Below, in pieces: positions 51,001 through 57,000 of a DNA stretch of 64,000 nt. The position numbers were made by a program. Within the stretch, counting starts at the first letter, position 1. Each line of letters begins with the position of its first letter. This stretch comes from Escherichia coli (GTDB lineage Bacteria; Pseudomonadota; Gammaproteobacteria; Enterobacterales; Enterobacteriaceae), in assembly GCF_003334785.1 (NCBI RefSeq), contig NZ_QOWV01000019.1. One strand, written 5' to 3'.

Positions 51001-54000
51001 CTGCCAGAGTTCGCCGACTATAACCAGCGCATCCGTCATCCCGGTGGTTTTCACCTGATAAATGCAGCTGCTGAAAGGCGCTGGATGACGCCGTCAGGTA
51101 AGGCTAATTTCATTACCAGCAAAGGGCTGTTAGAAGATCCCTCTTCAGCGTTTAACAGTAAGCTGGTCATGGCGACAGTACGCAGCCACGATCAGTACAA
51201 CACGACGATTTATGGTATGGATGATCGCTATCGAGGGGTATTCGGTCAACGAGATGTGGTCTTTATGAGTGCTAAACAAGCTAAAATTTGCCGTGTAAAA
51301 AACGGCGAAAGAGTTAATCTTATTGCGCTTACGCCAGACGGTAAGCGCAGCTCACGCCGCATGGATAGATTAAAAGTGGTCATTTACCCTATGGCTGACC
51401 GCTCACTGGTGACCTATTTTCCAGAATCGAATCACATGCTAACACTTGATAACCACGATCCATTAAGTGGCATTCCTGGCTATAAAAGTATTCCGGTTGA
51501 ATTAGAACCATCAAATTAATGCCTCTTCTCATTTCTTCTGCTGTCATCCGCACAGCAGAAGAATTCCTCATTGACTATTATTTCGCAATTTGCTCACATG
51601 GATTAAATTAAACTACATACTATAAGATATAAACTTCTGCCTACAGCTGTAAGAAACTCCGCTCAGTACTGAAGCACCAGTCCTATTTCCTCTTTTCTCC
51701 AGCCTGTTATATTAAGCATACTGATTAACGATTTTTAACGTTATCCGCTAAATAAACATATTTGAAATGCATGCGACCACAGTGAAAAACAAAATCACGC
51801 AAAGAGACAACTATAAAGAAATCATGTCTGCAATTGTGGTTGTCTTATTACTGACACTTACGTTGATAGCCATTTTTTCGGCAATTGATCAGCTGAGTAT
51901 TTCAGAAATGGGTCGCATTGCAAGAGATCTTACACATTTCATTATCAATAGTTTGCAAGGCTGAAAACAAACAGCAAATTATAAATATGAAATGTTAAAA
52001 AAGTATCGATAAAAACTTTATTGTTTTAAGGAGATAAAATGTCGCTCGTTTGTTCTGTTATATTTATTCATCATGCCTTCAACGCTAACATTTTAGATAA
52101 AGATTACGCCTTCTCTGACGGCGAGATCCTGATGGTAGATAACGCTGTTCGTACGCATTTTGAACCTTATGAGCGGCATTTTAAAGAGATCGGATTTACT
52201 GAAAATACCATTAAAAAATATCTACAATGCACTAACATCCAGACAGTGACGGTGCCTGTTCCTGCGAAGTTTTTACGTGCTTCAAATGTACCGACTGGAT
52301 TGCTTAATGAAATGATTGCTTATCTCAACTCGGAAGAACGCAATCATCATAATTTTTCAGAACTTTTGCTTTTTTCTTGCCTGTCTATTTTTGCCGCATG
52401 CAAAGGTTTCATTACACTATTAACTAACGGTGTGCTATCCGTTTCTGGGAAAGTGAGAAATATTGTCAACATGAAGCTGGCGCACCCATGGAAGCTGAAA
52501 GATATTTGTGACTGCCTGTACATCAGTGAAAGCCTGTTGAAGAAAAAACTTAAGCAAGAGCAAACGACATTCTCACAGATTCTTTTAGATGCAAGAATGC
52601 AGCACGCAAAAAATTTGATACGCGTAGAAGGTTCAGTCAATAAAATTGCCGAACAATGTGGTTATGCCAGTACATCTTATTTTATTTATGCGTTCCGCAA
52701 ACATTTCGGCAACAGTCCGAAGAGAGTTTCTAAGGAGTACCGTTGTCAAAGTCACACGGGTATGAATACGGGCAACACGATGAATGCTTTAGCTATTTGA
52801 TTATTTGCTAACGAGTAGTCAACCACACACGCTGCGTAAGAATTAAATGGGGCAGCCATTCCCTGCCCCGCGTTGTTTTTAGGCGATATATTTATTGAAA
52901 TAAATAAGTGACATCCATCACATATTTATGCACTTGCATAACCTGTTGCATGATTATTTATGATCTCAATTCTGCATTTTGTCAGTAAAATGCAATAATT
53001 TATTAAATATCAATAAATTAGTTGTTTATCGGCGAGAAATTACTTAATAGAACAGAAAGTAATGTCAACGCTTTATGGACTGTTTTTTCCCTTTTTTTAG
53101 CTAAATCTGCTATCTCTTTATGTGACTAACTTCACTTACATCCACTTATTTCTCTTCGTAAAATTACTTTGGAATTAAGTACAATAAGAAGAGGAACATT
53201 TATGAAGTCTGCATTAAAGAAAAGTGTCGTAAGTACCTCGATATCTTTGATACTGGCATCTGGTATGGCTGCATTTGCTGCTCATGCGGCAGATGATGTA
53301 AAGCTGAAAGCAACCAAAACAAACGTTGCTTTCTCAGACTTTACGCCGACAGAATACAGTACCAAAGGAAAGCCAAATATTATCGTACTGACCATGGATG
53401 ATCTTGGTTATGGACAACTTCCTTTTGATAAGGGATCTTTTGACCCAAAAACAATGGAAAATCGTGAAGTTGTCGATACCTACAAAATAGGGATAGATAA
53501 AGCCATTGAAGCTGCACAAAAATCAACGCCGACGCTCCTTTCATTAATGGATGAAGGCGTACGTTTTACTAACGGCTATGTGGCACACGGTGTTTCCGGC
53601 CCCTCCCGCGCCGCAATAATGACCGGTCGAGCTCCCGCCCGCTTTGGTGTCTATTCCAATACCGATGCTCAGGATGGTATTCCGCTAACAGAAACTTTCT
53701 TGCCTGAATTATTCCAGAATCATGGTTATTACACTGCAGCAGTAGGTAAATGGCACTTGTCAAAAATCAGTAATGTGCCGGTACCGGAAGATAAACAAAC
53801 GCGTGACTATCATGACAACTTCACCACATTTTCTGCGGAAGAATGGCAACCTCAAAACCGTGGCTTTGATTACTTTATGGGATTCCACGCTGCAGGAACG
53901 GCATATTACAACTCCCCTTCACTGTTCAAAAATCGTGAACGTGTCCCCGCAAAAGGTTATATCAGCGATCAGTTAACCGATGAGGCAATTGGCGTTGTTG

Positions 54001-57000
54001 ATCGTGCCAAAACACTTGACCAGCCTTTTATGCTTTACCTGGCTTATAATGCTCCGCACCTGCCAAATGATAATCCTGCACCGGATCAATATCAGAAGCA
54101 ATTTAATACCGGTAGTCAAACAGCAGATAACTACTACGCTTCCGTTTATTCTGTTGATCAGGGTGTAAAACGCATTCTCGAACAACTGAAGAAAAACGGA
54201 CAGTATGACAATACAATTATTCTCTTTACCTCCGATAATGGTGCGGTTATCGATGGTCCTCTGCCGCTGAACGGGGCGCAAAAAGGCTATAAGAGTCAGA
54301 CCTATCCTGGCGGTACTCACACCCCAATGTTTATGTGGTGGAAAGGAAAACTTCAACCCGGTAATTATGACAAGCTGATTTCCGCAATGGATTTCTACCC
54401 GACAGCTCTTGATGCAGCCGATATCAGCATTCCAAAAGACCTTAAGCTGGATGGCGTTTCCTTGCTGCCCTGGTTGCAAGATAAGAAACAAGGCGAGCCA
54501 CATAAAAATCTGACCTGGATAACCTCTTATTCTCACTGGTTTGACGAGGAAAATATTCCATTCTGGGATAATTACCACAAATTTGTTCGCCATCAGTCAG
54601 ACGATTACCCGCATAACCCCAACACTGAGGACTTAAGCCAATTCTCTTATACGGTGAGAAATAACGATTATTCGCTTGTCTATACAGTAGAAAACAATCA
54701 GTTAGGTCTCTACAAACTGACGGATCTACAGCAAAAAGATAACCTTGCCGCCGCCAATCCGCAGGTCGTTAAAGAGATGCAAGGCGTGGTAAGAGAGTTT
54801 ATCGACAGCAGCCAGCCACCGCTTAGCGAGGTAAATCAGGAGAAGTTTAACAATATCAAGAAAGCACTAAGCGAAGCGAAATAACTAAACCTTCATGCGG
54901 CGGATTTTTCCGCCGCCTTATTGAGCGAGATAGCGATGCACGTTACAGCCAAGCCCTCCAGTTTTCAATGTAATCTCAAATGTGATTACTGTTTTTACCT
55001 TGAAAAAGAGTCGCAGTTTACTCATGAAAAATGGATGGATGACAGCACTCTGAAAGAGTTCATCAAACAATATATCGCAGCGTCTGGCAATCAGGTCTAT
55101 TTTACCTGGCAAGGCGGTGAACCCACTCTGGCTGGCCTGGATTTTTTCCGTAAAGTTATTCACTATCAACAACGCTATGCAGGCCAAAAACGTATTTTTA
55201 ATGCATTACAAACGAATGGCATTTTATTGAATAATGAATGGTGTGCCTTTCTCAAAGAACATGAATTTCTGGTTGGTATCTCGATCGATGGCCCCCAGGA
55301 GTTACATGACCGTTACAGACGCAGTAATTCAGGTAACGGTACTTTTGCAAAAGTGATAGCAGCCATCGAGCGTCTGAAATCATATCAAGTAGAGTTTAAT
55401 ACGTTAACCGTCATTAATAACGTTAATGTCCATTACCCTCTTGAGGTTTATCATTTTTTAAAATCTATCGGCAGTAAACATATGCAATTTATCGAATTGC
55501 TAGAAACCGGGACGCCGAATATTGATTTCAGTGGTCATAGTGAGAACACATTCCGTATCATTGATTTTTCTGTGCCTCCCACGGCTTATGGCAAGTTTAT
55601 GTCAACCATTTTTATGCAATGGGTTAAAAACGATGTGGGTGAAATTTTCATCCGTCAGTTTGAAAGCTTTGTCAGCCGTTTTTTGGGGAATGGGCATACC
55701 AGTTGTATTTTCCAGGAGTCCTGCAAGGATAATCTGGTTGTTGAAAGTAATGGAGATATTTACGAATGCGACCATTTTGTCTATCCACAGTACAAAATTG
55801 GAAACATTAATAAATCTGAACTCAAAACGATGAACAGTGTACAACTGACAGCGCAAAAAAAACGGATTCCAGCGAAATGTCAGCAATGTGCATATAAACC
55901 TATCTGCAATGGCGGTTGTCCTAAGCATCGTATTACTAAAGTAAACAATGAGACTGTTTCTTATTTTTGCGAAGGTTATAAAATCCTTTTTTCAACCATG
56001 GTACCTTATATGAACGCCATGGTAGAGTTAGCTAAGAACAGAGTACCGCTTTACCACATTATGGATGTTGCAAAACAAATGGAGAATAATTAATAACGCT
56101 CTCTTTTAACTCCATTCTTAGCCTCCTTCTTATGACCTTAACAAGGCACCCGACATAAATTCCTGTCGGGTGTTTCGTCATCATCATCTTCCCTTGCGAA
56201 AATCCTGGCTTACGTGGTATGCATCAGGGCATTAGCAATATCCTTGATTATCAATAGCATAACCATAACCACTGAAAATGAAATATTCCTTTATATTTCA
56301 TATTGTTAAATGATACTTAAATAAATTTCATCAGTAAATCATTGCCATAGATAATCATTGGATGGCACAATCAATTTTCGCTAATGATAACCATTCCCAT
56401 TACGCTTCGTATGTTGATAGCAAAGTATCTCTGTCTGTTGAAGCCCTTTTGGCTGCGTAAGAATAATAAAACTTCAGTGTTGTTAATCATTATTATCCTC
56501 GCCATGATCCTTGGCGTGGTTAAAATTCAGGTCTGGTTAAACGACTGGAATAATGATTTTTTCAATGCGCTAAGCCAGAAAGAAACCGATAAGCTTTGGC
56601 AGCTTGTCCTTTGGTTCCCTGCCCTGCTGGGGATCTTTGTATTAATATCCGTAAACAAAACATGGTTAATTAAACTACTGACTATTCGCTGGCGCGAATG
56701 GTTAACAGATTACTACCTTAATCGGTGGTTTGCAGATAAAAACTACTACTTCACGCAGATCTACGGCGAGCATAAAAATACAGATAACCCTGACCAACGT
56801 ATCGCTGAAGACATTCTCTTACTGATCAGCAAAACGCTCAGTCTTTCATTTGGCTTCATCCAGTCACTTAGCATGCTGATCACCTTTACCGTTATTCTTT
56901 GGGAAAGCGCGGGTACGCTCTCATTCACTGTTGGTGGAACAGAATGGAATATCCAGGGGTATATGGTCTATACCGTCGTGCTCATTGTGATCGGTGGAAC

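Follow-up and report, generated by a model that had tools for sequence, protein, structure and literature searches.

Promoter islands subject to xenogeneic silencing by H-NS, the acid fitness island (slp-gadX) together with pqqL-gadBC, sulfatases paired with an anaerobic sulfatase-maturating enzyme (anSME), and the AraC-family regulators associated with plasmids and fimbriae are the described systems closest to a block of four Escherichia coli genes, safA, ydeO, ydeN, and ydeM. The block occupies positions 51520-56383 of the 64,000-nucleotide stretch of contig NZ_QOWV01000019.1 that we analyzed and refer to as the window. Described sulfatase-anSME pairs include Klebsiella AtsA/AtsB, E. coli AslA/AslB, and Bacteroides sulfatases with their anSME; the plasmid- and fimbria-associated AraC-family regulators are of the Rns/AggR/PerA type. 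At the locus itself, published accounts describe a branched circuit in which EvgA activates the safA-ydeO operon, YdeO acts on GadE, and SafA acts on PhoQ/PhoP. YdeO is documented to act on acid-resistance and respiratory genes (PMC4222967). H-NS preferentially binds ydeO, ydeP, and evgA promoter fragments in vitro and modulates expression of ydeO and ydeP (PMC2984483). A 327-bp promoter island at ydeO/safA, one of 78 listed, lies within IslandViewer and GIST islands, was rated as foreign by two of the three predictors that work on genes, and was H-NS-bound in all three chromatin immunoprecipitation (ChIP) data sets compared (PMC3661553).

The original prediction, made from the window's sequence, read the block as fitting a single acid-stress module of horizontal origin, kept silent at the basal level and released by an EvgA-SafA-YdeO cascade. 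We find instead that the block is very probably a mosaic: two gene pairs, each acquired independently and long resident, lie side by side near dif, the XerCD chromosome dimer-resolution site, in DNA that is H-NS-bound according to published ChIP data. EvgA boxes stand before ydeP and safA but not before ydeN, and a terminator follows ydeO, so that safA-ydeO and ydeN-ydeM appear to be separate transcription units. Separate histories are indicated by a divergent Escherichia genome in which the two pairs are split, by the occurrence of YdeO and SafA in Escherichia only, and by the wide occurrence of YdeN homologs in unrelated flanks. The features of the block are as follows (window positions and strand).

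51520-51766, plus strand: ydeP-safA intergenic region with the safA-ydeO promoter region (36.0% GC), containing an EvgA box at 51638-51655
51767-51964, plus strand: safA, 65-amino-acid membrane connector from EvgS/EvgA to PhoQ (RefSeq; 37.4% GC)
about 51836-52162, unstranded: promoter island reported for the safA/ydeO junction (PMC3661553, Table 1; approximate mapping), including the 51965-52038 spacer
52039-52800, plus strand: ydeO, AraC/XylS-family activator of gadE (NCBIfam equivalog NF007407; 39.4% GC)
52848-52870, plus strand: intrinsic-terminator-like hairpin and T-run after ydeO (8-pair stem with 6 G-C pairs, then TTGTTTTT)
52907-52922, minus strand: CRP site assigned to ydeN, an exact occurrence of the ChIP-seq site sequence TGTGATGGATGTCACT listed for that gene in PMC4287617
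53202-54884, plus strand: ydeN, predicted Ser-type sulfatase whose N terminus carries a signal-like segment (RefSeq; 44.1% GC; SGPSR at residues 132-136)
53250-56071, plus strand: span over which the ydeN-ydeM cassette aligns to its copies in Aeromonas, Salmonella, Yersinia, and Leminorella (blastn, 68.6-73.2% identity, coding regions only)
54936-56093, plus strand: ydeM, predicted anaerobic sulfatase-maturating radical S-adenosylmethionine (SAM) enzyme (TIGR03942; 38.6% GC)
56094-56383, plus strand: ydeM-yddA intergenic region, a recurrent rearrangement breakpoint (35.5% GC; AT tracts at 56250-56400)

Composition and H-NS Binding

The AT-richness first noted by eye was borne out by sliding-window analysis. 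At 39.6% GC, compared with 47.2% for the whole window, the block has a z-score of -4.7 against a background of 300 kb taken from six other places in a K-12-like chromosome (51.9% GC; SD of 2.6% for 4,864-bp windows). None of the 2,712 background windows was as low, the lowest being 39.8% in the rhsA-yibA region, and only 0.3% of equal-length windows within the window itself reached this level (minimum of 39.5%, starting at 51701). The two intergenic regions that had been singled out as strongly AT-rich, 52801-53201 between ydeO and ydeN and 56094-56383 between ydeM and yddA, indeed have 32.2% and 35.5% GC, and the 74-bp safA-ydeO spacer (51965-52038) falls below both at 18.9%. GC at third codon positions (GC3) is 0.400 in safA, 0.399 in ydeO, 0.420 in ydeN, and 0.384 in ydeM. 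These values give z-scores of -2.9 to -3.6 against a genome-wide 0.581 ± 0.055 and of -1.8 to -2.5 against a local baseline of 0.521 ± 0.055, calculated from 26 ordinary genes located within the window's first 37 kb. The four genes thus lie 10-14 GC3 points under the local baseline, a level reached among the 26 by pinQ, a prophage gene, and yneK alone, whereas ydeP and yddB, one on each side of the block, lie on it.

The composition drop relative to the flanks, also part of the original prediction, is abrupt on one side only. The left edge is sharp, with a change point at ∼51415 where GC falls from 51.0 to 36.0% (likelihood ratio of 90). The right edge is soft: the first ∼400-500 bp of yddA are still AT-rich, and beyond them GC climbs to only ∼46%, under the genome mean. 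Neighboring genes are also below average (ydeQRS at 44.6-44.8%, yddA at 43.6%, and pqqL at 46.7%), and the block is itself heterogeneous, with 36.0% GC in the safA-ydeO part, 44.1% in ydeN, and 38.5% in ydeM and its spacer.

We mapped the published promoter island with g(NC_000913.3) = 1,635,715 - x, accurate to roughly 15 bp, assuming an offset of ∼1,977 bp between U00096.2 and U00096.3. By this mapping, the block corresponds to ∼1,579,330-1,584,200 of NC_000913.3. The interval obtained for the promoter island holds 100-bp windows of at least 70% AT, in agreement with the AT tracts found there; tracts of this AT content lie at 51900-52100, 52900-53100, and 56250-56400. Farther along, published PhoB sites inside ydeN and yddB are flagged as lying in H-NS-bound regions (PMC10294691), and both occur exactly in the window, at 53758-53775 and 58557-58574. 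Such intragenic PhoB sites are deemed transcriptionally inert by-products of AT-rich sequence, and both genes are expressed at very low levels, with ∼120 normalized counts for ydeN (PMC10294691). H-NS-motif-like sites occur at 3.7 per kb in the block, 2.9 times the background of 1.27 per kb (18 observed compared with 9.0 ± 3.1 in composition-matched shuffles). Of the predicted silencing, H-NS binding at the safA/ydeO junction and within ydeN is published, but a single silenced module extending across the block is not supported.

Transcriptional Control of the Two Gene Pairs

A scan of the window with the EvgA-box consensus TTCYTACANNTGTARGAA gave three matches compared with 0.55 expected, and none of 100 shuffles reached three. 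The match at 51638-51655, with one mismatch, lies 112 bp 5′ of the safA ATG; another, with two mismatches, precedes ydeP outside the block, and the third, with three mismatches, falls inside ydeO. Both ydeP and safA-ydeO thus carry the box expected of EvgA regulon members. No EvgA box was found in 52801-53201, before ydeN, and the ydeN-ydeM pair lies downstream of the terminator-like hairpin that follows ydeO. Both observations speak against one acid-stress module, as does the fact that ydeN, ydeM, and yddA are nowhere mentioned in the YdeO-regulon paper (PMC4222967); by this literature test, the only one applied, the four genes do not together form an EvgA/YdeO module.

Other regulators have been assigned to ydeN. 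Besides CRP, a 2024 paper describes ydeN as a direct AraC target and ydeMN as highly expressed in an araC mutant (PMC10878103); our scan for AraC half-sites, with 44 matches compared with 50 expected, was uninformative on AraC control of ydeN. The acid-response regulator GadX binds the ydeN promoter, which would favor a shared acid-stress function, but it reduces the ydeN transcript rather than inducing it. The cascade of the original prediction, if taken as linear, gives way to the published branched circuit, in which SafA acts on PhoQ and YdeO acts on gadE elsewhere, and we found nothing showing that SafA or YdeO relieves silencing of the block.

Distribution of the Two Gene Pairs

YdeO matches its equivalog model NF007407 with 605.7 bits (cut-off of 348) over residues 1-253 of 253, whereas its 108 bits with the GadX equivalog model are under the cut-off. 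YdeO orthologs at 77-100% identity are labeled E. coli only, and the next relatives are 36-45% identical. SafA gave 17 matches in 1.84 billion cluster representatives, every one of them a SafA variant or fragment. By these matches, safA is an apparently lineage-restricted orphan, and safA-ydeO is a predicted Escherichia-restricted operon with its own terminator. A YdeO scan of the genome collection returned three loci, two of which were in contaminated metagenome-assembled genomes, and missed the E. coli representative. The metagenome-derived contigs (L009/L010), labeled "uncultured bacterium UMGS1713" and Candidatus Nanosynbacter (12.8 kb), are 98-99% identical to the locus and are most likely bin contamination.

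The ydeN-ydeM pair is, on motif and model matches, a predicted Ser-type sulfatase with its radical-SAM maturase. The S-x-P-x-R motif of YdeN reads SGPSR (residues 132-136), and Pfam Sulfatase (PF00884) is recorded for YdeN homologs; YdeM scores 505.5 bits with TIGR03942 (cut-off of 349.45) and carries its CxxxCxxC motif as CNLKCDYC (residues 12-19). Mucin-derived sulfated sugars have been proposed, as speculation, to be the substrate (PMC10878103). YdeN homologs with 72-84% identity occur in Leminorella, Salmonella, Citrobacter, Yersinia, Proteus, Aeromonas, Shewanella, Iodobacter, and Anaerobiospirillum, in the case of Salmonella and Citrobacter in some strains only. Four hosts, Aeromonas veronii, Salmonella enterica, Yersinia pestis, and Leminorella grimontii, have a co-oriented radical-SAM maturase gene ∼50-58 bp past that of the sulfatase, and the flanks are unrelated, with insertion sequence (IS) transposases in Aeromonas, an integrase and a TraI relaxase in Salmonella, and an IS200-type transposase in Yersinia. 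Homologs are present on 33 plasmid records, of which 18 are conjugative, and an IncF plasmid carries a porin-sulfatase-IS arrangement that is 77.5% identical. In the other hosts and plasmids inspected, the cassette is never accompanied by safA or ydeO.

The GC content of the cassette is 40.0% in A. veronii, 41.1% in Y. pestis, 45.1% in Salmonella, and 54.2% in Leminorella. The genome of A. veronii is ∼58% GC, so the cassette stays AT-rich even there. The L. grimontii copy (L022 8001-10902) is the closest in protein sequence (84%) and has a GC3 of 0.73, compared with 0.34-0.49 in E. coli, Yersinia, Aeromonas, and Salmonella; it alone has the appearance of a native or fully ameliorated copy.

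The block thus combines raised A+T with a distribution that is restricted for YdeO and SafA and patchy, across several orders and plasmids, for YdeN-YdeM, as expected of xenogeneically silenced DNA. The comparison of phylogenetic distribution that had been proposed as a check, with safA-ydeO found in Escherichia only and ydeN-ydeM patchy, fits acquisition. Foreign-looking composition and published island calls agree with it, and the claim of horizontal acquisition is supported, though probably in two units rather than one.

Strain Variation and Flanking DNA

A divergent Escherichia genome labeled E. coli (L011), whose flanks have 90-93% nucleotide identity to the window, carries lsrK, hipBA, dif, ydeP, safA, ydeO, and then directly yddA, yddB, and pqqL. 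In this genome, 57 bp stand in place of window positions 52926-56068, and homology resumes at 56069. Its locus is equally AT-rich (37.9% GC in ydeO and 35.7% in the safA region), and it retains the ydeO terminator, the CRP site, the spacer to ∼53000, and ∼30 nt resembling the 3′ end of ydeM. From these remnants, it is more likely that ydeNM was deleted in the L011 lineage than that L011 represents an empty site. In the same comparison, SafA diverges faster than YdeO (63 vs. 93% amino acid identity between E. coli and L011, where safA lies at 9730-9918), and the ydeP-safA-ydeO segment (L011 6809-10888) has 84% nucleotide identity, lower than its flanks. Homology to L011 also stops exactly where dif ends; beyond this point, the fimbrial operon of E. 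coli is missing from L011 apart from a 133-bp remnant, so that the DNA adjoining dif is lineage-variable.

Within E. coli, both pairs are nearly universal. Among 5,426 complete genomes, safA-ydeO was present at ≥80% coverage in 5,356 and ydeN-ydeM in 5,323. This would make any transfer ancient, before the diversification of E. coli. Deletions around the block recur among E. coli strains. In L015-L018, a deletion runs from a fimbrial chaperone gene into ydeO, with loss of ydeP and safA and formation of a 271-amino-acid fusion protein; in strain 98889 (L023 16100-17022), a deletion extends from just past the ydeM stop into pqqL, and yddA and yddB are gone. The 3′ end of ydeM (window ∼56069-56101) is a repeated breakpoint.

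The window is a K-12-type E. coli chromosome segment in the orientation opposite to MG1655, and it is 99.9% identical to strain PG20180063 without the IS2 of that strain. The gene names and coordinates used in the original prediction agree with the RefSeq annotation. Upstream of ydeP lie hipBA and then the truncated fimbrial genes ydeT, ydeS, ydeR, and ydeQ. Like K-12, the window (45647-46873) is without the major subunit, chaperone, and 5′ usher portion of ydeQRST; strain 98889 (L023 2545-6873) has all six genes. The block lies 6.5-11.4 kb from dif and the replication terminus, and ydeP, outside the block by composition, nevertheless belongs functionally to the EvgA unit. Features outside or at the edge of the block are as follows.

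44949-44976, plus strand: dif (28/28 match to the E. coli dif sequence; 0 in 100 shuffles), 77 bp past the hipA stop
48979-48996, plus strand: EvgA-box-like inverted repeat upstream of ydeP, outside the block (2 mismatches to TTCYTACANNTGTARGAA)
49240-51519, plus strand: ydeP, acid-resistance oxidoreductase (RefSeq; 50.3% GC; GC3 of 0.495; z of -0.47 vs. local genes)
56059-56181, minus strand: yneP, 40-amino-acid small protein over the 3′ end of ydeM (RefSeq; no NCBIfam match)
56384-58069, unstranded: yddA (RefSeq), followed by yddB, pqqL, and gadB

Other AT-rich dips in the window are the pqqL-gadB spacer (63320-63680; 30.2% GC), the lsrK-autotransporter spacer (37000-38000), yneK (18849-19964; 39.8% GC and GC3 of 0.396), and the pinQ-ydfK end of the Qin prophage (2001-3500). 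The two spacers are both listed as H-NS-bound promoter islands (PMC3661553).

A search for scars of mobility gave negative results. The window contains no tRNA gene, no Rfam family was found as an island boundary mark, no mobility gene is annotated between ydeP and yddA, and repeats flanking the block are of chance level only (14-20 nt). The integrase, attachment site, and direct repeats of a classical genomic island or integrative element were thus not found. A degenerate second dif was not found in the window either: with the full 28-mer and up to 10 mismatches, there were two matches compared with 2.1 expected. An arms-only scan yielded dif alone, and integration mediated by Xer/dif, as in integrative mobile elements exploiting Xer (IMEX), was rejected on these two scans.

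Proposed Explanation and Alternatives

We propose that unit A (∼51415-53000) would be the safA-ydeO operon, at 36% GC, with an EvgA-box promoter and its own terminator. H-NS would nucleate where the safA/ydeO junction has tracts of 70% AT or more, holding basal expression low; acid-activated EvgA would override H-NS at the safA promoter, after which SafA would activate PhoQ and YdeO would activate gadE. Unit B (∼53000-56100) would be a mobile ydeN-ydeM cassette, spread through Gammaproteobacteria by plasmids and in company with IS and integrative elements, and the terminus-proximal region may collect such AT-rich DNA. In this proposal, we infer both horizontal acquisition in two events and action of EvgA by counter-silencing.

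Several observations weigh against a mosaic of two independently acquired pairs. With no integrase, tRNA, IS, direct repeat, or pseudo-dif, acquisition is deduced rather than traced. Both units are present in more than 98% of E. coli genomes. In L011, the CRP site and the ydeM-like remnant suggest loss, so the lack of ydeNM there is no proof of separate arrival. As the YdeO scan of the genome collection missed the E. coli representative, it cannot show absence from Escherichia albertii, Escherichia fergusonii, or Salmonella. H-NS occupancy is taken from published ChIP summaries rather than coverage tracks, and repression by GadX does tie ydeN to the acid network, negatively. The GC3 of local genes lies ∼6 points below the genome sample, so that part of the deficit of the block is regional and may reflect terminus location. 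Finally, the dinucleotide signature of the block (delta* of 56 compared with 39 ± 14) is matched or exceeded by 8.6% of background windows; being only mildly deviant (91st percentile), it was not used as support for transfer.

The mosaic could be extended with a more specific origin for each pair. According to this extension, ydeN-ydeM is one copy of a promiscuous AT-rich cassette, sometimes with a porin, that has spread recently via plasmids and IS elements, ydeO derives from a mobile fimbria- or plasmid-associated AraC-family regulator captured beside ydeQRST at dif before it was wired to EvgA, and the block is an accidental neighborhood. We regard this as possible but lean slightly against it. 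The nearest YdeO non-orthologs are on conjugative plasmids, beside a PerC-family gene. A second ydeO copy (L012 4414-10822; L014 408-1229), with 78% protein and 85% nucleotide identity confined to the coding region (window 52028-52736), occurs without safA or ydeNM, as the last gene of a chaperone-usher fimbrial operon that is unrelated, with IS66 after it. Only 4 of the 5,426 complete E. coli genomes carry this copy (their hosts were baboons, a guinea fowl, and a human), and all four have another match, presumably the canonical ydeO. We also considered ydeO as the original regulator of the adjacent ydeQRST operon; the usher of the other fimbrial operon is 33% identical and its adhesin is unrelated, and no specific support emerged.

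A later arrival of the second pair, with ydeN-ydeM inserted into the ydeO-yddA spacer after E. coli and L011 split and L011 representing the empty site, seems unlikely. The end of cassette homology at 56071 falls within 2 nt of the point at which L011 resumes (56069), and the last eight residues of YdeM, the shortest of its homologs, lie in a non-conserved region, as would fit an open reading frame reading into pre-existing DNA. This C-terminal alignment is not decisive: at conservative positions, the E. coli tail DVAKQMENN is similar to EIADRIDAA, its Leminorella counterpart, suggesting that the tail belongs to the cassette and persists as a remnant in L011. The left spacer persists in L011 to ∼53000, as does the CRP site that ChIP links to ydeN, and deletions ending at the ydeM 3′ junction recur within E. 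coli.

We consider it highly improbable that the four genes are native and that their composition results from mutational bias at the terminus, selection for AT-rich H-NS-binding DNA, and weak codon selection, without any transfer. Such an account draws on the proximity of dif (6.5 kb), the low GC3 of the 26 local genes compared with 0.581 elsewhere, the lack of mobility scars, the unexceptional dinucleotide signature, near-universality in the species, and low expression, as measured for ydeN (PMC10294691). However, the block genes fall below the local baseline and ydeP and yddB lie on it, which makes position alone insufficient to explain the block. The cassette, moreover, remains at ∼40% GC in A. 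veronii and is found among IS elements and on conjugative plasmids, the protein collections searched gave no SafA or YdeO ortholog from beyond Escherichia, and syntenic Enterobacteriaceae orthologs with identities tracking the species tree were not seen for either unit.

Highly improbable as well is the arrival of all four genes as one acquired acid-stress module, silenced jointly and de-silenced by an EvgA cascade: the genes are contiguous, co-oriented, AT-rich, and co-present in nearly all E. coli, with H-NS reported both at the safA/ydeO junction and inside ydeN, but in addition to their separate control, their distributions differ wholly (an Escherichia-only set compared with a pan-gammaproteobacterial cassette), the cassette occurs elsewhere without safA or ydeO, a lone ydeO copy occurs without ydeNM, and L011 has one pair only.

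Comparison with Known Systems

The AT-richness of the locus, its island predictions, and its H-NS binding were already published, and the locus makes a textbook-like case of lineage-specific, AT-rich DNA bound by H-NS. Added here are the dissection into two units, the cassette behavior of ydeNM, and the terminus context, together with the correction that adjacent AT-rich genes are not to be taken as a single functional module. Spread of the cassette is also a modest lead for the use of sulfated glycans by gut Proteobacteria.

A mosaic of two gene pairs resembles each known system in part. It is like the H-NS-silenced promoter islands (PMC3661553) in AT content, published H-NS occupancy, and restricted or patchy spread, and it has an EvgA box where counter-silencing could act; unlike them, the block does not vary between strains but is fixed in E. 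coli, its borders are marked by no integrase, tRNA, or repeats, and it consists of two juxtaposed units. The acid fitness island and pqqL-gadBC are likewise AT-rich, H-NS-repressed, and Escherichia-restricted, and their AraC-family regulators GadX and GadW are related to YdeO. However, the block contains a regulator and a connector rather than decarboxylase or chaperone effectors, and its ydeNM half is without a demonstrated acid-resistance role.

The likeness to regulators of the Rns/AggR/PerA type lies in the YdeO non-orthologs on conjugative plasmids, in the ydeO copy that ends a chaperone-usher operon, and in the position of canonical ydeO downstream of the ydeQRST fimbrial operon. In contrast to those regulators, YdeO targets acid-resistance and respiratory genes and not fimbriae, and the two fimbrial operons, whose ushers share 33% identity, are but distant relatives. 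As in described sulfatase-anSME pairs, YdeM passes the anSME model, YdeN has the Ser-type motif, and the two genes are adjacent and co-oriented in every host examined; ydeNM differs from those pairs in behaving as a mobile AT-rich cassette.

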